From IMG/VR virus record IMGVR_UViG_2671180460_000013: DNA of 26,013 bases; one strand, given 5' to 3'. A model generated the notes under the pieces. The model had not been told where the DNA came from, did not search any database, and saw only the letters and a list, made by a program, of their open reading frames with translations. The translations under genes were made by a program, and so were the position numbers. This DNA is from a virus. Its lineage: Duplodnaviria; Heunggongvirae; Uroviricota; Caudoviricetes. Shown here piece after piece: positions 18,079-26,013 of this stretch; the stretch's first letter is position 1; each line of letters opens with the position of its first letter.

Positions 18079-19092
18079 TCAGGCGATGGTGACCGCAGAC
18101 TCATCCACGGCAGCATATAAATCCGGATCGCCCAGGGCGTACCCCTCGTAACGCCAGTATGAGTTTTCGAACTGTTTGCGATCGCCCACATCTTCTGCCT
18201 TGCGGCGGCGGGAGCCTTTCAGCGTCAGGATCTGCAGGTTTGGCAGCATGGTCACCACCATACGTTTGCCCGGCATAAACGGCGGAATGATGGCCTTGCG
18301 GCCTGCAATGTTCTTTGTCAGCAACTGTGCGGCTACTTTTTCGGTAGGCTTATCCTCTTTGTTGTAGAGGCGTAGTTCTTCAGCAGCCACAAGGTCTGCG
18401 CCGACCAGTACGGTAAGTCGTGGGTCGTTGTGATACTGTGCCGGGATGTAAGTGCGGATCAGGTCTGAGGCCATGGCATCAAGACCGACATAATCGCCGC
18501 CTTCGCCCAGGGTAACGGCGTCTGTCAGAATACGGGAGGTATTGCCGGGCTGTTCTCCCCACTTTTTGGCGATTTCATGCCAGCCGATGTTGACGTCTTC
18601 GCCGTTCGGATGACTTTCCGGGTCAGAGTTTTCCGCTGCTGTTTTACCGTTAAAGCCAATGCGCAGCATATCCAGCGCAAAGTTGGTGACGGCGGCGGAG
18701 TTCATCAGGTTGAAAAATTCCTGCGGGCTGCCGGCATTCGCCCAGATGGCGAGTTGTTCCCAGGTGATCACGCAGCAGGAATCAGTTTCAACGAGTTTAA
18801 ATTCGTTGCCTTTGATGCCCGAACCTTTAGCGAAACGACCGCTTTTCACGCGACCGGTGCGCAGTGTGGATTCGCCCACGGTGACGACCTGCCCCTGCGG
18901 GTGCGGAACGTCCATGCAGGTGATGAAACTCAGAAACTCCGTGCTTTCCAGCAGGGCTTTACGCAGAGCAATACTGCGTGGCTCGGTCAGCGAAAAGAAA
19001 CGATCGCTTGATTTCCCGCAGTCACTGAATGTTTTTTGCAGTTCGCTGATGTACTGATTAACCAGCTTTTGTGCTTCTGGTGTCATGTTCAT
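18079..19092 (-). CDS. N: major capsid protein, P2 gpN family
   Basis: 337 aa. GEGGDYVGLDAMASDLI...YHNDPRLTVLVGADL matches the recalled P2 gpN block GKGGDYASLDALVMD...YQEDPDLVVIVGRQL. Confidence 0.9.
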   Translation of the reverse strand: MNMTPEAQKLVNQYISELQKTFSDCGKSSDRFFSLTEPRSIALRKALLESTEFLSFITCMDVPHPQGQVVTVGESTLRTGRVKSGRFAKGSGIKGNEFKLVETDSCCVITWEQLAIWANAGSPQEFFNLMNSAAVTNFALDMLRIGFNGKTAAENSDPESHPNGEDVNIGWHEIAKKWGEQPGNTSRILTDAVTLGEGGDYVGLDAMASDLIRTYIPAQYHNDPRLTVLVGADLVAAEELRLYNKEDKPTEKVAAQLLTKNIAGRKAIIPPFMPGKRMVVTMLPNLQILTLKGSRRRKAEDVGDRKQFENSYWRYEGYALGDPDLYAAVDESAVTIA

Positions 19093-19106
19093 TGCGTTCT
19101 CTCCGG

Positions 19107-20003
19107 TTACACCAGGTTAAAAGTTTCGCCACCGGCCGGATTGTTGCCCGGCAGCTTCGTGGCGTCCTTGCTGAGTTCAGCAAATGCGGTTTCCATACTG
19201 GTAACCTTCTCCGCGATGGCGTTCACTGTGGAGAACAGCTTTTCCCCCTGCTCAGTGGTCAGCGTGAAGGTTTTGTCGTCCTTGTTGTTCTGTTCTGCGT
19301 TGTTCTGCCCCTGATCGCCGGTGCTGCCTTCCGGCTTGTTATCACCGGTATCTTTCGGGGCATCCTTCGCGCTGAACTGCGCGACGTTTTCTTCCAGCTT
19401 GTCCAGGCGTTCGCTGGTTTTATTAATAGCGCCCATTAACTGGCTGAACTGTTCTTCGTTCATGGCTTGGTAGATTCCCTGTTGGTGGTTGTCAGATGAG
19501 AAGAAGCGGGAGAAGAAGTTGCGCTTGGCCAGCTCATCATCAGACTGCAGCGTAAAATTCAGCGCCTCTGCGTTGCCCATATGGATGGTTTCCCCCATGG
19601 AAAACTGCAGGCGTGTGGTGTTAACGCTGGCCGGGGTATCCGTCACGGCGATACCTGACACAAAGAATTTGCCCGTGCCCAGATAGTTTTCCCGCACCTC
19701 AATGGAGGTAAAAAGCTTCTGCCCGGCCTTATTGGCTTCAATCAGGAAGCGATTTGGGATCAGGCGTGCTTTAAGCTGCACCTTGTCACCAAATTTTTCG
19801 ACTTTCAGGGCATCAACAAGGCCGTAGTTATTGGTGAAGGCACGCCATCCGGAATCGGCGTGATATGGCCAGAGCATGGCGGCTCGCTCGTCCGGGTTGT
19901 AAACCTCGGCGGCATCTGTCAGCCACTTCGGATCAATTTCCCGACCGTCGATGGTGGGGCCTGATGTGGCAACCACAACCCAGTCTGTTTTCTGCTTCGT
20001 CAT
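19107..20003 (-). CDS. O: capsid scaffolding protein, P2 gpO-like
   Basis: 298 aa, first gene of the minus-strand head operon, divergent from P. Charged, low-complexity C-terminal half typical of scaffolds. Confidence 0.8.
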   Translation of the reverse strand: MTKQKTDWVVVATSGPTIDGREIDPKWLTDAAEVYNPDERAAMLWPYHADSGWRAFTNNYGLVDALKVEKFGDKVQLKARLIPNRFLIEANKAGQKLFTSIEVRENYLGTGKFFVSGIAVTDTPASVNTTRLQFSMGETIHMGNAEALNFTLQSDDELAKRNFFSRFFSSDNHQQGIYQAMNEEQFSQLMGAINKTSERLDKLEENVAQFSAKDAPKDTGDNKPEGSTGDQGQNNAEQNNKDDKTFTLTTEQGEKLFSTVNAIAEKVTSMETAFAELSKDATKLPGNNPAGGETFNLV

Positions 20004-20086
20004 CTGAATTAATCCGCTGATAAAAATTAAACTGGCGTTATTTAACGGAGAAATAAAAATGTCGTCATCTGATTAATTTCCGGTAC

Positions 20087-20112
20087 TTTCGGATATGCGT
20101 ATATATCCGAAA
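20087..20112. promoter_or_regulatory. 10-bp-arm dyad TTTCGGATAT-N6-ATATCCGAAA centred midway between the divergent O and P start codons; candidate shared late-promoter regulator site
   Basis: Perfect inverted repeat read directly from the sequence. Centre lies about 96-98 nt from each start codon. No P2-style TGT-N12-ACA site is present in this spacer. Confidence 0.4.
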
Positions 20113-20197
20113 AATACCGAAAAGCGATATTCGTTTTTAAAAAAGCCTTTGCTGAAAATGCATAAATTAAAATTGCATCAGCAGGTGAGGTTTATTT

Positions 20198-21985
20198 ATG
20201 GCGTATTCTGATGAGGTGATTGCTGCTGCAAAATCGCTCTATCTGAAAAGACACACACCAAAAGAAATACAAAAGAAGCTCGGACTGAACAGCCCGCGAA
20301 TTGTTTATTACTGGGCGACAAAGTTTGAGTGGTACACACAGCTTAATGCTGAAGGCGTGGAGGATGTTATCGCTCGTCGTCTCGCTGTACTGGCGGAGCG
20401 TGATCATAAAACGCCGGAAGAGCACGATGAACTTGATCGCCTGATTGGTCATCACGTCAAACTGATGTCGGTCAGGAACAAGCACACGGAACGCATGGCC
20501 GAGATTGAACGAATGGGAGCGGATATTCCCCAGTCTGGTCGTTATGGAAAAGAAGAACGCGGAGAAAAAGGTGCAGGTAAGAAAGAGCGCCCCCGCAAAG
20601 CTAATGACGTTTCCGGACTGACTGCTGAAAGTTTTGAGCCGTTTACGAAAAAGTTGTTTGCTTATCAGTTGCATCTGCGTGAAAACAAATTCCGCCGTGT
20701 ACGCAACCTGCTTAAATCCCGCCAGATTGGGGCGACGTATTACTTCGCGTTTGAGGCATTTGAAGATGCAGTATTAACCGGCGACACACAGATATTTTTA
20801 TCGGCATCAAAACGTCAGGCCGAAGTGTTCCGTACTTATATTGTAAAAATTGCACAAACAGAGTTTGGCATTCCCATTAAAGGCAATCCGGTTAAGTTAA
20901 GTAATCTGGCTGAACTGTATTTTCTGGCGACCAACAGTAACACAGCGCAGTCAAACAGCGGTCACCTGTATATTGATGAATACCTGTGGATCCCCGGTTT
21001 TCGCCGTCTCAATGAAGTGGCATCAGGGATGGCCACCCATAAACACTGGCGCATTACCTATTTCTCCACGCCGTCAGCCAAAACACATCAGGGCTACCCG
21101 TTCTGGTCTGGCGATGAATGGCGCAAAGGTGACCCGAAACGAAAAGGGATTGAGTTCCCGTCCTTTGATGAGCTGCGCGATGGCGGGCGCGAATGTCCGG
21201 ATGGTCAGTGGCGCTATGTGGTTACGCTGGAAGATGCTATTGCCGGCGGCTTTAACCTTGCTGACATCAACGAGTTGCGCGAGCGGTACAACGAAACAGC
21301 GTTCAATATGTTGTTTATGTGCGTGTTTGTGGATGACAAAGAGAGCGTCTTTAAATTCGATGACCTCGTGCGCTGTGGCGTTGATGTCAGTACGTGGGAG
21401 GATTTTCACCCGGAAGATGCCATGCCATTTGGAAACCGTGAAGTGTGGGGTGGCTTTGACCCTGCACGCTCCGGCGATAACGCCACGTTTGTGGTGCTGG
21501 CACCGCCGCTGGTTGCGGCAGAACGATTCCGCGTGCTGGAAAAACACCACTGGCGCAGCATGTCATTCCAGTTTATGGCAGAGCGTATCCGCAGCATTAA
21601 GGCGCGCTATAACATGACGTTTATCGGCATTGACGTCACCGGCCTTGGCTACGGTGTCTTTGAGCTGGTTCAGGGATTTGCCCGCCGTGAAACAGTGGCC
21701 ATTCATTACAGCGTTGAATCCAAAAACCGCCTGGTGATGAAGATGCTGGATCTGATTTACGCCAACCGTATTGAGTGGGATGAGGAGGCAACAGATATTC
21801 CGGCATCATTTTTGGCCATTCGTCAGGAATCCACCAATAGTGGCAATAAAGTTACTTTTACTGCTGAACGTAGCGAAGAAACCGGGCACGCTGACATCTT
21901 CTTTGCCATAGCTCATGCCGCAAGTAATGAACCCCTGAACTATAAGCACAAGCGCAAATCAACATGGATCCTGTCAGATGAGTAA
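20198..21985 (+). CDS. P: terminase large (ATPase) subunit, P2 gpP-like
   Basis: 595 aa. ATG with AGGTGAGG RBS. Walker-B-like LYIDEY. Divergent from O and upstream of Q, as in P2. Confidence 0.9.
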   Translation: MAYSDEVIAAAKSLYLKRHTPKEIQKKLGLNSPRIVYYWATKFEWYTQLNAEGVEDVIARRLAVLAERDHKTPEEHDELDRLIGHHVKLMSVRNKHTERMAEIERMGADIPQSGRYGKEERGEKGAGKKERPRKANDVSGLTAESFEPFTKKLFAYQLHLRENKFRRVRNLLKSRQIGATYYFAFEAFEDAVLTGDTQIFLSASKRQAEVFRTYIVKIAQTEFGIPIKGNPVKLSNLAELYFLATNSNTAQSNSGHLYIDEYLWIPGFRRLNEVASGMATHKHWRITYFSTPSAKTHQGYPFWSGDEWRKGDPKRKGIEFPSFDELRDGGRECPDGQWRYVVTLEDAIAGGFNLADINELRERYNETAFNMLFMCVFVDDKESVFKFDDLVRCGVDVSTWEDFHPEDAMPFGNREVWGGFDPARSGDNATFVVLAPPLVAAERFRVLEKHHWRSMSFQFMAERIRSIKARYNMTFIGIDVTGLGYGVFELVQGFARRETVAIHYSVESKNRLVMKMLDLIYANRIEWDEEATDIPASFLAIRQESTNSGNKVTFTAERSEETGHADIFFAIAHAASNEPLNYKHKRKSTWILSDE

Positions 21986-23012
21986 AAAGAAAAAATCCCC
22001 CGTGTTACACGATGGCGTGGCAAAAAAAACAGCCAGCAAAATGACTTTTATTGAATTTGGTGACCCGGAACCGGTCGCTGCATGGGGCTGTTATTACGGC
22101 TCGCTCTGGGATGGCTATAACGGCTGGTACACGCCGCCCATTGAGCGCATGGATCTCGCCATGTTGTCCAATATCGCACCGTATCACGGCGCGGTATTGC
22201 GTGCGCGCGTCAATATGATCATGCAGGGTTTTCGGGGTGGCGGTGGTATGACACACGCCGCCATGGCGGCAGCAGTAACCAATCTGCTGATATTCGGGGA
22301 TATGGGGTTGCTTAAAGTGCGCAATGGCTTCGGTCGAGTGGTGCGCCTGCATACGTTACCTTCTCTGTACCTGCGGCGTAACAACGAGGGTGGCACGGTG
22401 ATTGTGCAGGCGGCACTGGAAGATCTCGTTTACCCGCCAGGCGAAGTGGTGTTCGTGGCCGTTTATGACCCGCAACAGCAGGTTTACGGTGTCCCGGATT
22501 ATATTCACGGGATGGAATCCGCCATGCTGAATGTGGATGCCACCCGCTTTCGCCGCAAGTATTACAAGAACGGCGCACATCTTGGTTATATCCTGTATTC
22601 CAGTGACCCGGACATGGATCCCGAGCTCGAGGCGGAATTCCGTAAAAAGATAGAGGCGTCAAAAGGGGCGGGCAATTTTAAATCCATGTTTATCAATATA
22701 CCGGGCGGAGACAAAGAAGGCGTTAAGGTGATCCCTATCGGGGATTCAGGTACAAAAGATGAGTTCCTGAATATAAAAACCATCAGTGCCCAGGATCAGC
22801 TTGTTGCGCACCGTTTCCCACCCGGACTTGCCGGCATCATTCCCGCAAATACGGCCGGGCTTGGTGACCCACTGAAATCCCGCGAGGCATATTACAGGGA
22901 TGAGGTTATCCCGATGCGCCGCCTGATTATGGAGGGGATCAACAGCGACCCGGATATCAGACGACTGGGGGAGGTGAAATTTATTCTTGATTTTGATGAA
23001 CCCATGGAGTGA
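21978..23012 (+). CDS. Q: portal protein, P2 gpQ-like
   Basis: 344 aa, the same length as P2 gpQ as recalled. Its ATG overlaps the last codons of P (GATGAGTAA). Confidence 0.85.
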   Translation: MSKKKKSPVLHDGVAKKTASKMTFIEFGDPEPVAAWGCYYGSLWDGYNGWYTPPIERMDLAMLSNIAPYHGAVLRARVNMIMQGFRGGGGMTHAAMAAAVTNLLIFGDMGLLKVRNGFGRVVRLHTLPSLYLRRNNEGGTVIVQAALEDLVYPPGEVVFVAVYDPQQQVYGVPDYIHGMESAMLNVDATRFRRKYYKNGAHLGYILYSSDPDMDPELEAEFRKKIEASKGAGNFKSMFINIPGGDKEGVKVIPIGDSGTKDEFLNIKTISAQDQLVAHRFPPGLAGIIPANTAGLGDPLKSREAYYRDEVIPMRRLIMEGINSDPDIRRLGEVKFILDFDEPME

Positions 23013-23077
23013 TGTGCGGTATGGGGAAAGAGCGGGTAAAATCGGTGGCAGTAAAACGCTGTTCCGGGAGGTGGAAA

Positions 23078-23335
23078 ATGCGCAGACAGAAAGCGCGATG
23101 TCATTGCTGCGGTGCACATGCAGTGATTGAGAAAACAGCCTGGAAAACCGATCAGTTTGCTGATGTGTATTACCGTTGCACCCGTCTCGAGTGCGGACAT
23201 ACCTGGGTGATGAATCTGACCTACTCGCACACACTGGTGCCCAGCGGGCTGGAGAATGGTGTGTTAAAGCTGTTGATTGAGCGGATGCGTCCGGAAGAAA
23301 AACAAATGGCTCTGGAGTTGTTGCAGGCCGGATAG
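23078..23335 (+). CDS. ogr: Ogr/Delta-family zinc-finger late transcription activator (putative)
   Basis: Internal ATG at 23078 with GGGAGG RBS gives 85 aa. CHCC ... CTRLEC gives the CxxC ... Cx4C spacing of P2 Ogr. Followed by a strong terminator. Confidence 0.7.
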   Translation: MRRQKARCHCCGAHAVIEKTAWKTDQFADVYYRCTRLECGHTWVMNLTYSHTLVPSGLENGVLKLLIERMRPEEKQMALELLQAG

Positions 23336-23355
23336 CTGACGCGCTTCGCTTGTCC

Positions 23356-23406
23356 AACCCGGAACGGGCGCACAAAGAATTTGCGCACCCGTTCCGGGTT
23401 TTCTTA
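23356..23406 (+). terminator. intrinsic terminator between convergent ogr and the Rrf2/par operon (possibly bidirectional)
   Basis: 13-bp perfect stem AACCCGGAACGGG / CCCGTTCCGGGTT around a 19-nt partly self-complementary loop, followed by TTTTCTTATTC on the plus strand. Confidence 0.6.
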
Positions 23407-23763
23407 TTCAATGGCAGACAACTGATAATTTGTGTCTTCCTGCAGGCTGGTTAAAGAAATATTATCCAGTGCAGCCAGAATAACGTGCTGTGTATATAAT
23501 CCGGAACATTTCATTGCCCGGACAATATCACCAACACTGTAATTTTCTTTTGTCGGGATATATCCACCACCCGGGCCGCGTGTGGCTTTTACCAGGCTAC
23601 TTTCCCGTAAATATCTGAATATTTGCTCCAGATATGACAGTGAAACGGTTTCTTTGCTTAATTGCCGGAGCGAGATTGGCTTTCCGGTGTACTGTTTCAC
23701 AAATTTAATCATTACCATAACTGCAACTGATGCACGCTGGCTTCCGGAATTATCTTTCATCAT
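23404..23763 (-). CDS. Rrf2-family transcriptional regulator (short; lacks the three-Cys cluster ligand set)
   Basis: Start at the ATG doublet 23758-23763 with GGAAG RBS. ISLRQLSKETVSLSYLEQIFRYLRESSLVKATRGPGGGY matches the Rrf2 HTH / GGGY signature. Only one Cys in the C-terminal half. Confidence 0.7.
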   Translation of the reverse strand: MMKDNSGSQRASVAVMVMIKFVKQYTGKPISLRQLSKETVSLSYLEQIFRYLRESSLVKATRGPGGGYIPTKENYSVGDIVRAMKCSGLYTQHVILAALDNISLTSLQEDTNYQLSAIE

Positions 23764-23774
23764 GATTACTTCCA

Positions 23775-24062
23775 TTAATGGCATAAATTGATGGAGCGGG
23801 TCAGTGAATAAAGAGGCAATACATTCCATCCCTTAGAGCGCCAGCTGTCTGCAACATCTTTACTTCTTGTTATCGCCGGTATTCCAATAGGATTATTTGC
23901 GTGCATCCATGCCACTGGCTCTGCTTCCAGTGATGCAAGTGCGATTTCCAGTGCGATTAACATATTGTGATCGTCTTCATCAAGACCGAACGGGATGTCT
24001 TCGCGCCACGATTTAAACTCTGTGATTTTACGTTGTAACCATTCTTTGGTAATGGTGGACAT
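23775..24062 (-). CDS. hypothetical protein (95 aa) co-transcribed between parR and the Rrf2 gene
   Basis: ORF-track start at 24080 is GTG. The internal ATG at 24060-24062 has an AGGAG RBS 6 nt upstream. No recognisable motif. Confidence 0.5.
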   Translation of the reverse strand: MSTITKEWLQRKITEFKSWREDIPFGLDEDDHNMLIALEIALASLEAEPVAWMHANNPIGIPAITRSKDVADSWRSKGWNVLPLYSLTRSINLCH

Positions 24063-24076
24063 AGTTACTCCTGTTT

Positions 24077-24391
24077 TCACTTCGGGAAAAACGCCTGAAT
24101 ATTTTTTTTCACCTGCTGCATATGGGTGGCGCTGTCTGCTGCTGGTTGCGCCGGTTTTTCAGGCTGTACTGGTAGCGGTGGCATCCGTATTTCGTCTTCT
24201 GACCATTCTGCCAGCGAATACGCCAACGCGGGGTGGCGTTTTATAAGAGCCAGTCCGGCCAGAAAAGCCGCGCGTTGTGCGCGGCTGCGTTCGGAGGCTG
24301 GCAGGCTGTCGAGGTAACTGCACGCCTCCCGTTCGCTCTTGACGACGGCGGGCTTCAGATAGAAACTTATCCGTCTGGTTGGTGTCGTCAT
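24077..24391 (-). CDS. parR: ParR-like centromere-binding protein (ribbon-helix-helix type, type II partition)
   Basis: Internal ATG at 24389-24391 with an AAGGAG RBS inside the parM 3' end. RISFYLKP...LDSLPASERSRAQRAAFLAGLAL parallels recalled R1 ParR (IAFKLNPD...LDSIPQGERSRLNRAALTAGLAL). Confidence 0.75.
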   Translation of the reverse strand: MTTPTRRISFYLKPAVVKSEREACSYLDSLPASERSRAQRAAFLAGLALIKRHPALAYSLAEWSEDEIRMPPLPVQPEKPAQPAADSATHMQQVKKNIQAFFPK

Positions 24392-24395
24392 TGAT

Positions 24396-25355
24396 TTACT
24401 CCTTGTCCATTGCGTACAGCCCATTAACCAGAGCAAACTGTGGCACCCCGTCCGCGATGAAAGTCGCATTAACTCCGCAGGCTTCGCGGATAGCGGGTGC
24501 CACAATCTCCGCTCCTCCACCTACAACCATCACCCGCCCGTAACCCGAAAAACCCGCCAGCGCGCGGATCACGCGTTGTTTCAGTGTTTCTTCCTTTTCA
24601 CGAATAACAGCCATCAGGCTGGCGTAATGTGCGTTATTGTGGATGTGCTGGCGCAGCCAGGCTTCATCGTGGCGATGTTCGATAATGGTATTAGCGATGT
24701 GGTGACTGGTACGCATACCGTTGGTGGCCATCACCGACAGCACGGCATCGGCCATCAGGGAAACGCCTACGTGTGGATCGCAAAACACCTGGCTGATACC
24801 TGCCAGTTGCCCCTGAACCTTTGCCACATCCAGCGTGGTTCCGCCCAAATCCACAATCAGCAGGGATTCAAACGGACTCATGTCAGCCAGTGCTTTAAAG
24901 CCTGCCGGAATGGATTCAGGCATAACCCGCACGTTACGGATAGTGAATGCCTCACCGTTCTGGTACTCCACCGGGCGCATGACGTTCGCTTTTTTGCGGT
25001 TGATGTTGGCCATGTCCGGCTGTGCGTTTGTGTCGAAATACTCGCTCAGTGGCAGGGTGACAACCACATCCACCTCCTGTGGCGTGATGCCTGATTTGAC
25101 CAGCGCGTGATGAATGGCAATTACATTCACATCGCTGTACTGGTATTGCGTGTCGGTCGTCTGGACAAAGCGATCGCTGACCGGATCAAAACCATAGCGC
25201 ACGCCATCAAGCATGTAGTTCGCGGGCTGCGTGCCACCGAACGGCGCAGACCATTCCGACTTGAAGCTGTTCGGGCTGATGGCGTTGCGGCGTTCGCCGT
25301 TCTCAGTCCATGCCAGCTTGATGTTGGTGGAGCCGTCATCGATACAAATTTTCAT
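24396..25355 (-). CDS. parM: ParM / StbA-family actin-like segregation ATPase
   Basis: 319 aa. MKICIDDGSTNIKLAW, ISPNSFK, YSDVNV..HHAL, VMPESIPAG, DLGGTTLD and VVGGGAE blocks align by eye with recalled R1 ParM along most of the protein. Confidence 0.9.
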   Translation of the reverse strand: MKICIDDGSTNIKLAWTENGERRNAISPNSFKSEWSAPFGGTQPANYMLDGVRYGFDPVSDRFVQTTDTQYQYSDVNVIAIHHALVKSGITPQEVDVVVTLPLSEYFDTNAQPDMANINRKKANVMRPVEYQNGEAFTIRNVRVMPESIPAGFKALADMSPFESLLIVDLGGTTLDVAKVQGQLAGISQVFCDPHVGVSLMADAVLSVMATNGMRTSHHIANTIIEHRHDEAWLRQHIHNNAHYASLMAVIREKEETLKQRVIRALAGFSGYGRVMVVGGGAEIVAPAIREACGVNATFIADGVPQFALVNGLYAMDKE

Positions 25356-25386
25356 GTCGCTTTTCCTTATGTTGATTAATTAATCG

Positions 25387-25484
25387 TTTACGGGATTCTG
25401 AAATCCCGTTTTTGCCTGTTTTATGCGCGCTTCATATATCGCGGCGCGTTTTTTGCTCATTTACGGGATTCGTGAGTCCCGTTT
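25387..25484. repeat. two copies of a ~20-bp palindromic motif (TTTACGGGATTC...TCCCGTTT) 73 bp apart upstream of parM; candidate parC centromere / operator flanking the par promoter
   Basis: ACGGGATT-ctga-AATCCCGT at 25390-25409 and ACGGGA-ttcgtgag-TCCCGT at 25463-25482. The proximal copy sits 30-55 nt upstream of the parM ATG; the distal copy overlaps the 3' end of the upstream ORF. Confidence 0.45.
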
Positions 25485-26013
25485 CTGTCAGTTTTTTGTT
25501 TCCACTGGTCAGGCCACCCCGCAGCAGGTCTGCTTTGCGGCTGGCGCGTTCAGTGGTTTCACTGATTCTCTGTGCGTGCTCTGCGTCGCGGATGGTGCGC
25601 AGCATGTCAGAAAGCACGGTAACGGGTGTTTTCATGGTGTTCTGGTCCTGCTGAAGTGTGGATGCCAGGCGTGCGGCGGCTTCAGGGTCTGATGCTCCCA
25701 GCTGTGCCAGATAGCTGGCGACCGGGTTATGGCGGATCTCTGTGCTGCTTACGCCATGATTATGGCTCAGGCGCTGCCAGAGCTGCGTGATTCGGCTGTC
25801 CGGGCGGGTATCCGGTTTGCGTACAATTTCAAATCCCTGCGGTGCAATGATGCTGCCGTCAACGTACAGACTGCCGCCCCGTAACAGGTGCTGCATCTGT
25901 TGTTCACCGATATGCAGGCCGAGAGATTCAGCAGACTCCCGCCATTCTTTAGCGAGTAATTCGTGGTTATCAGGCAAAGGCCGCTGCTGTTTGCGGCTCT
26001 GTGTCCAGCTCTG
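25432..26013 (-). CDS. hypothetical protein, 5'-partial (reading frame open to the window edge)
   Basis: ORF-track start at 25977 is TTG. Hand translation of 25978-26013 in frame shows no stop, so the gene probably starts beyond the window. Stop at 25432-25434. Confidence 0.5.
   Translation of the reverse strand, partial: QSWTQSRKQQRPLPDNHELLAKEWRESAESLGLHIGEQQMQHLLRGGSLYVDGSIIAPQGFEIVRKPDTRPDSRITQLWQRLSHNHGVSSTEIRHNPVASYLAQLGASDPEAAARLASTLQQDQNTMKTPVTVLSDMLRTIRDAEHAQRISETTERASRKADLLRGGLTSGNKKLTETGLTNPVNEQKTRRDI

Follow-up and report, generated by a model that had tools for sequence, protein, structure and literature searches.

Type II (ParM plus ParR) partition modules are of a kind that stabilizes low-copy plasmids, and we describe here such a gene pair, parM-parR, in a tailed phage. 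The pair is found in IMG/VR virus record IMGVR_UViG_2671180460_000013 (Caudoviricetes), a stretch of 26,013 nt that is called the window throughout. It lies beside a gpA-type replication endonuclease gene, between replication gene A and portal gene Q, which is the gpA-gpQ accessory hotspot of P2-like phages (Rousset et al. 2022, PMC9122126). Both the observation and a plasmid hypothesis for it are already in print in that study. RefSeq likewise already labels the genes ParM and "plasmid partitioning/stability family protein" in P88 and in prophages, and the paper on phage PhiSM lists the gene merely as "fitness" cargo (PMC6456863). What is added here is that carriers of the pair are essentially always integrated, that parMR is a constant inner element beside gpA rather than variable cargo, that ParM hardly varies whereas ParR is mosaic, and that a specific candidate binding site precedes parM.

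We read parMR as a genuine, selectively maintained type II module, fixed in the early region of an integrating P2-family lineage, namely the P88-like phages (genus Xuanwuvirus) and their relatives. We give about an even chance to the general mechanism proposed for it, of which the transcription, the contact between ParR and the repeats, and the role are inferred; homology, synteny, conservation, chromosomal residence, and the cargo status of the neighboring genes are observations. More tentatively, we propose that R1-type ParM filaments, acting through a minimal two-palindrome centromere by the gpA origin region, may separate or position rolling-circle genome circles during the extrachromosomal phase of the phage.

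Described systems that resemble the locus

The ParMRC system (parA locus) of R1/IncF plasmids shares with the window the parM-then-parR order, the same protein families, and repeated DNA just upstream of parM. The carriers differ, because the host here is an integrating P2-type phage replicating from gpA and not a low-copy theta plasmid. The repeated DNA differs as well, with two 42-nt palindrome-cored repeats taking the place of the two clusters of 11-bp-phased iterons that surround the promoter in R1-type systems. In addition, ParR here is shorter and has one helix fewer, and no promoter consensus was found between gpA and parM.

The "putative plasmid partitioning system" that Rousset et al. 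(2022) reported from the gpA-gpQ hotspot of E. coli P2-like phages is the same arrangement. Their supplementary table holds it exactly, with the same protein accessions for the two genes that follow parR (orf95 and an Rrf2-family gene) as in L001, a relative that is 97-98% identical. In that work it is one hotspot system of many and plasmid maintenance is suggested, whereas in the loci analyzed here parMR is constant beside gpA and its carriers are essentially always integrated.

Two further systems show what actin-like partition genes can do in elements that normally reside in a chromosome. The srpMRC genes stabilize the excised, rolling-circle-replicating form of SXT/R391 elements and reduce element loss, and their centromere, srpC, consists of four 13-bp direct or inverted repeats in the 5′ UTR of the ParM-like gene (Carraro et al. 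2015, PMC4489591). As in the window, an actin-type partition system resides in a normally integrated element that has a rolling-circle-type initiator. However, SrpM and SrpR have only a distant relationship to R1 ParMR, the window ParM being by contrast a close R1-type protein, and SXT/R391 elements are conjugative rather than phages. AlpAC of the Corynebacterium glutamicum prophage CGP3 is induced early and is needed for efficient phage DNA replication (Donovan et al. 2015, PMC4446434). There, a prophage actin-like protein (AlpC) and a co-transcribed DNA-binding adaptor (AlpA) act on excised circular phage DNA, much as is proposed here for parMR. AlpC belongs to another actin-like branch (the ALP_N match of the window ParM is below the Pfam cutoff), and CGP3 has another gene order, a Gram-positive host, and an unrelated adaptor.

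The nearest phages are Escherichia phage P88 and Citrobacter phage PhiSM of the genus Xuanwuvirus (Peduoviridae), functional temperate phages that carry an integrase and a ParM that is 100% identical to that of the window; over gpA-parM-parR their DNA is 95-97% identical to it. They differ from it in their packaging and head module, in their ParR, which is another allele (52% identical), and in their cargo.

Identity and conservation of ParM and ParR

The genes at the center of the analysis are as follows.

25432-26013, minus strand: gpA-type (P2) replication endonuclease gene, 3′ end, 181 codons, cut by the window end
25355-24396, minus strand: parM, actin-fold ATPase, 319 aa (Pfam, PHROG, and PDB matches)
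24391-24077, minus strand: parR, ribbon-helix-helix adaptor, 104 aa counted from the ATG (Pfam, alignment)

An earlier reading of this DNA, made from its sequence only, had recognized parM and parR by eye, and database comparisons bear out both identities. ParM matches the two Pfam domains of its family (StbA_N, 1.8e-82; ParM C-terminal domain, 1.6e-68), PHROG 691 ("partition protein", 2e-90), and the R1 ParM structures 1mwk/4a62 (E~2e-92, residues 2-316). It is 47% identical to R1 ParM over its full length, and the alignment shows that its nucleotide-binding motifs (DDGSTNIK, MPESIPAG, DLGGTTLD, and GGGAE) are the same as those of R1 ParM. An NCBIfam search with ParM gave far-sub-cutoff matches only.

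ParM is 98-100% identical in amino acid sequence throughout 86 related loci, and at least 91% identical within Escherichia. Its dN/dS value is 0.05 over 72 distinct alleles, and the parM-parR open reading frames (ORFs) are intact in 86/86 loci. Thus, parM is under strong purifying selection.

More distant relatives, 54-63% identical, are found in prophages of Plesiomonas, Hafnia, Serratia, and Enterobacter. There the gene order is int, repressor, cox, and, further on, gpA, parM, parR, variable genes, in some cases ogr, portal, and terminase. Apart from six prophage-containing plasmid records, plasmid ParMs are at most 52% identical to the phage ParM, and homologs that are at most 50% identical occur in conjugative-element or integrated-plasmid contexts. 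Monophyly of the phage ParMs was considered and is unsupported, as the Serratia and Enterobacter phage proteins resemble a plasmid ParM (59-60%) about as much as they do the window ParM (54-58%).

ParR matches Pfam Plasmid_stab_B (PF10784) at 3e-24 and, weakly, the pB171 ParR structure 2jd3 (E=0.011). It aligns with R1 ParR and pB171-type ParR, and the N-terminal ribbon-helix-helix region is common to R1 ParR. The translational linkage of the two genes proposed in the sequence-only reading is also evident, in that the Shine-Dalgarno sequence of parR, AAGGAG, is made by the last two sense codons of parM (aag gag taa atca ATG).

The conservation of ParR is far from uniform. Among the related loci its identity is 52-98%, and for the Escherichia entries of the protein database it is 46-100%. 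An alignment of 24 sequences shows no change in the N-terminal strand RRISFYLKP. The pN/pS values are 0.12-0.14 in the conserved DNA-binding part and helices, and 0.46-0.63, at which positive selection was rejected, in a relaxed linker of ~26 residues. The tail, which comprises the last ~12 residues, is again constrained (0.07-0.25), with N97, I98, F102, and P103 invariant. Its motif, (K/R)xN(A/I)xx(L/F)(F/I)P, lines up with the C terminus of R1 ParR, reportedly a ParM-binding helix that inserts into ParM (Gayathri et al. 2012). An AlphaFold monomer model of low confidence (pLDDT 66) forms a helix from residues 87-101, preceded by a disordered linker. A Foldseek search of the PDB with this monomer was uninformative, and the ribbon-helix-helix strand forms only in the dimer.

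DNA homology to other phages breaks within the 3′ half of parR, at ~24194-24239, and synonymous divergence is higher in the 3′ part of the gene. These two signals suggest cargo-swapping recombination within the gene.

Chromosomal residence of the carriers

The window ends inside gpA and does not show an integrase region of its own; the evidence on integration comes from relatives. The gpA-parM-parR block shares 94-97% DNA identity with P88, PhiSM, and other Xuanwuvirus phages. A search of 5426 complete E. coli genomes found it in 1372 (25%), and of the copies counted in these genomes 1533/1535 are on the chromosome; a second count gave 1789/1791. The closest full-length relatives, 97-98% identical, are in the chromosome of a Shiga toxin-producing E. 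coli (STEC), an E. albertii contig, and an IMG/VR contig. The STEC prophage encodes an integrase, a C-type repressor, and Cox, and adjoins pdxB. In experiments, PhiSM lysogenized K-12 through integration into pdxB, at a site of 17 bp (PMC6456863), and P88 came from E. coli K88 after a prophage region there had been induced chemically.

A tyrosine integrase is encoded in 15/15 loci that have at least 9.3 kb of sequence upstream of parM, and in 65/86 overall. These integrases are of at least four types, with identities of 37-100%, while ParM stays at 98-100%, and the insertion sites vary with integrase type. The gpA gene is directly upstream of parM in 84/86 loci (one match being only 39% identical), and the other two loci begin at parM. 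The gpA product matches PHROG 6857/91 ("nicking at origin of replication") and is annotated as a replication endonuclease in L001 and in P88 (L002). In these two annotated relatives this rolling-circle endonuclease is the sole replication protein seen, with no plasmid-type initiator.

Even the morphogenesis genes have been exchanged around the module. In the comparison of 18079-23335 with P88, the packaging and head genes of the window are a different module, with a portal protein that is 30% identical. Because the early region and ParM are near-identical to those of P88 while the head and packaging genes differ, the same replication/ParMR block is combined with at least two morphogenesis modules.

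A ParM that is 98% identical also occurs within an Escherichia-type prophage on a 226-kb contig labeled Vagococcus sp. (L005, NZ_JBQPOM010000071.1). Because Vagococcus is a Gram-positive genus, this assembly is likely contaminated or mislabeled.

These data bear directly on the possibility that the element is a facultative phage-plasmid, which would persist as a low-copy circular episome besides integrating and would rely on ParMR to secure its inheritance. The sequence-only reading had proposed such a candidate phage-plasmid from the plasmid-type partition genes, and the idea was also raised by Rousset et al. (2022). Some records seem to favor it, although only 2 phage-sized plasmid records match the query. 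For an E. coli isolate from a cat, a complete copy is deposited as a 34,461-bp circular "plasmid" (L003, NZ_CP148288.1), and the query region is matched in part (28% coverage, within parM) by a 26.8-kb plasmid record from Shigella. However, the 34,461-bp record encodes an integrase, and a human isolate (NZ_CP148378.1, H152) has the same phage integrated in its chromosome (14.5 kb compared, 100.0% identical). This record shows a circular form reaching assembly-level abundance and is not proof of plasmid lysogeny. The two isolates bear strain names of a similar series.

Furthermore, circular records are not specific to parMR carriers, as there are ~7 phage-sized "plasmid" records of E. coli P2-like phages without this ParM, a baseline that is rough because it is capsid based and the window capsid is ~28% identical to most P2-family capsids of plasmid records. 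Since the copies are chromosomal, the relatives bear integrases, and gpA is the only replication gene seen, the phage-plasmid reading is unsupported, and we consider it unlikely. An integrase together with chromosomal attachment sites, which the sequence-only reading had named as part of what would count against its proposal, is indeed found in the relatives.

A candidate centromere upstream of parM

Under the proposed action of parMR on replicating phage circles, ParR would bind a site on the phage DNA. Two repeats just upstream of parM are candidates.

25457-25498, minus strand: candidate centromere/operator repeat 1, within the last gpA codons; palindromic core 25463-25482 (ACGGGAyTCACrAATCCCGT)
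25384-25425, minus strand: candidate centromere/operator repeat 2, in the gpA-parM spacer; perfect 8-bp-arm palindrome 25390-25409

These two 42-nt direct repeats are 79% identical and have a spacing of 73 bp; the gpA-parM spacer itself is 76 bp. Each holds the palindrome ACGGGAyT-N4-AATCCCGT. The pair is kept in 56 distinct upstream variants, in which substitutions are commonest in the palindrome loop and some fall in the arms. The motif is found nowhere else in the 26-kb window or in the whole prophage L001. This repeat pair is thus a candidate centromere that ParR may bind. Its layout is unlike the phased iteron clusters of R1-type systems and is closer to that of srpC in SXT/R391, with its four repeats.

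A Plesiomonas prophage (L087) whose ParM is 63% identical has an analogous pair of 26-nt repeats at the same position, with a spacing of 72 bp. These repeats have arms of only 4 bp, which fits protein binding better than a terminator role. In Serratia L090 and Enterobacter L091, the spacer before parM is ~150 bp long and has a large inverted repeat of another kind, based on ATAGAAAAAT, with arms of 14-20 nt that are 26-28 nt apart. Such differences suggest that centromere or operator sites are specific to each lineage and change together with ParR.

Two other features of this interval were noted. A GC-rich palindrome (ACGCGC…GCGCGCA) at ~25425-25449 spans the gpA stop codon, midway between the candidate repeats, and an A-tract precedes each of these three elements.

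Proposed role of the module

A consensus scan of the gpA-parM interval found no sigma-70-like promoter and no minus-strand terminator. Because neither was found, parM and parR would be co-expressed with the early replication genes, by read-through from the operon that ends in gpA. ParM and ParR would then be produced while phage DNA replicates as a free circle, either after infection or after excision. Dimers of ParR would attach to the two repeats with their palindromes, on either side of the gpA end, and the conserved C-terminal tail of ParR would capture ParM filaments, whose growth would push sister phage circles apart. The benefit could lie in spreading circles for replication and packaging, or in passing the element to both daughter cells when it has yet to integrate or has excised abortively. 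We do not distinguish between these two benefits, inheritance and positioning, but by our inference the device would not serve stable plasmid lysogeny. The mechanism is plausible because srpMRC and AlpAC provide precedents for it. The sequence-only reading had offered, as a fallback, an actin-like filament used for DNA positioning during infection; that idea is viable and close to the explanation we prefer.

Several observations weigh against this proposal. The deposition of an identical phage in both circular and integrated form means that the element does exist as an episome at times. No more than two palindromes, with four half-sites, make up the candidate centromere, whereas R1-type parC has two clusters of 11-bp-phased iterons, as seen in the R1-type control pHK01. 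Both palindromes also precede T-runs on the plus strand and score as intrinsic terminators, and a function as plus-strand backstop terminators is a real alternative to binding by ParR. The ParR of the E. coli phages is without a helix of ~20 residues that is kept in R1-type and in more distant phage ParRs, and higher-order complex assembly could differ as a consequence. The promoter scan was a crude consensus test, and a weak ParR-regulated promoter could still be present. Finally, the literature searched held no expression, binding, or phenotype data and no functional study of the module.

Downstream genes and the gpA-gpQ hotspot

Beyond parR, the locus continues with the following features.

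24062-23775, minus strand: orf95, 95 codons, cargo (PHROGs of unknown function only)
23763-23404, minus strand: Rrf2-family winged-helix regulator, 119 aa (annotation of RefSeq relatives), cargo (Pfam Rrf2)
23356-23400, bidirectional: terminator-like hairpin with 21-nt arms, 90% complementary (terminator scan)
23009-23335, plus strand: ogr/delta-type zinc-finger late activator gene (Pfam Ogr_Delta, 1.4e-12)
21978-23012, plus strand: portal gene (gpQ-type), far edge of the gpA-gpQ hotspot (Pfam/PHROG searches)

Only 4, 14, and 11 nt separate the parM, parR, orf95, and Rrf2 genes, and the scan found no terminator-like site after any of the four before the 23356-23400 hairpin. The terminase, portal, and ogr/delta genes on the plus strand (20198-23335) converge on this minus-strand unit, and the hairpin closes both. 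Their presence confirms the P2-type packaging module noticed in the sequence-only reading. The portal gene had been placed about 400 bp from the four-gene unit; the distance (~390 bp) is right, and the interval is occupied by the ogr/delta gene, whose start (23009) overlaps the portal stop codon (23012). Nothing in the sequence matched the P2 cos site, sought as a 19-mer with up to 3 mismatches allowed, and cos was not located. An Rfam scan of 22900-26013 returned a sub-threshold chance match as its sole result.

The sequence-only reading had treated the four minus-strand genes as one partition operon. The layout is as described and the call of an Rrf2 regulator is correct (Pfam Rrf2, 3.9e-13; IscR structures, 1e-10; a longer ORF reaches 23829), but a partition role does not extend to orf95 and Rrf2. 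Whereas parMR is present in 86/86 loci, orf95 is matched in ~19/86 (13 of them at 98-100% identity) and the Rrf2 gene in 11, all of which also have orf95. Full-length matches to the four-gene block occur in 37/5426 E. coli genomes, versus 1372 for gpA-parMR. The GC content of orf95/Rrf2 is 43-45%, versus 55-59% for parMR. These two genes are swappable low-GC cargo and not partition genes.

The slot after parR could be delimited in 62 loci, where it holds 0.9-4.1 kb of differing genes. Known defense systems that sister phages carry in this slot, each given with its pair of loci, include IetA+IetS (L080/L083; 3.6e-89 / 5.6e-41), PDC-M11A+B (L027/L046; 3.6e-131 / 5.7e-51), and an AbiL-like ATPase + Toprim pair (L015/L076). 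In other genera the slot contains HicAB or a KAP NTPase. The content variation typical of the hotspot is thus true of the orf95/Rrf2 slot but not of parMR. By position, orf95-Rrf2 is a candidate accessory or defense pair; orf95 has no Pfam match. The idea that parMR-orf95-Rrf2 forms a known defense system was dropped, as PADLOC gave no match for any of the four proteins.

Several slot genes (ORF clusters 22, 24, 29, and 30) carry an orf95-like N-terminal module (…IPFG(L/M)D.ND..ML.A..IA.A.L.A.P…) joined to unrelated C-terminal parts. Proteins of this type look like a modular family (PHROGs 660/60).

The position of parMR at the inner edge of a defense hotspot, together with a ParR that is diverse within Escherichia while ParM is not, might indicate that the module serves the lysogen against competitors. 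ParR, ParM, or the repeats would then hinder related phages or plasmids with a compatible centromere, through incompatibility or exclusion. We judge this to be decidedly improbable. Aside from the negative PADLOC result, the diversity of ParR lies in its relaxed linker. Because the RRISFYLKP strand and the repeats are largely conserved, the specificity of ParR has not diversified. The distance of plasmid ParMs (at most 52% identical) and the failure to find a promoter consensus also count against this reading.

An action on the integrated prophage or the host chromosome, by which the module would aid or perturb segregation of that region, is very improbable, even though the element is almost always chromosomal and its repeats are normally there. 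If parMR is co-transcribed with gpA, as the promoter scan suggests, it would be repressed in lysogens, and insertion sites that differ by integrase type give the module no constant chromosomal position. We also know of no type II system that acts on a host chromosome. Last, it is scarcely credible that parMR is a functionless hitch-hiker, a plasmid-derived remnant carried with a hotspot known for gene turnover (repeated plasmid capture being possible given the Serratia and Enterobacter ParMs), because its reading frames are intact and under strong purifying selection and it has been kept while cargo, integrase, and even the whole morphogenesis module were exchanged.

Implications for phage biology and annotation

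Two lessons for annotation follow. A ParMR match inside a P2-like region marks neither a plasmid nor a phage-plasmid, and the genes after parR are hotspot cargo and not partition genes.

The gene pair is present in a quarter of complete E. coli genomes, is strongly conserved, and resides in a phage that integrates. If the preferred reading is true, and parMR partitions phage circles, it would constitute an actin-like cytoskeletal element in the life cycle of a Gram-negative tailed phage rather than a plasmid-maintenance device. It would parallel srpMRC of integrative and conjugative elements and, as an E. coli example that is well understood and easy to manipulate, would join the small set of phage cytoskeletal systems described so far, such as AlpAC and PhuZ.

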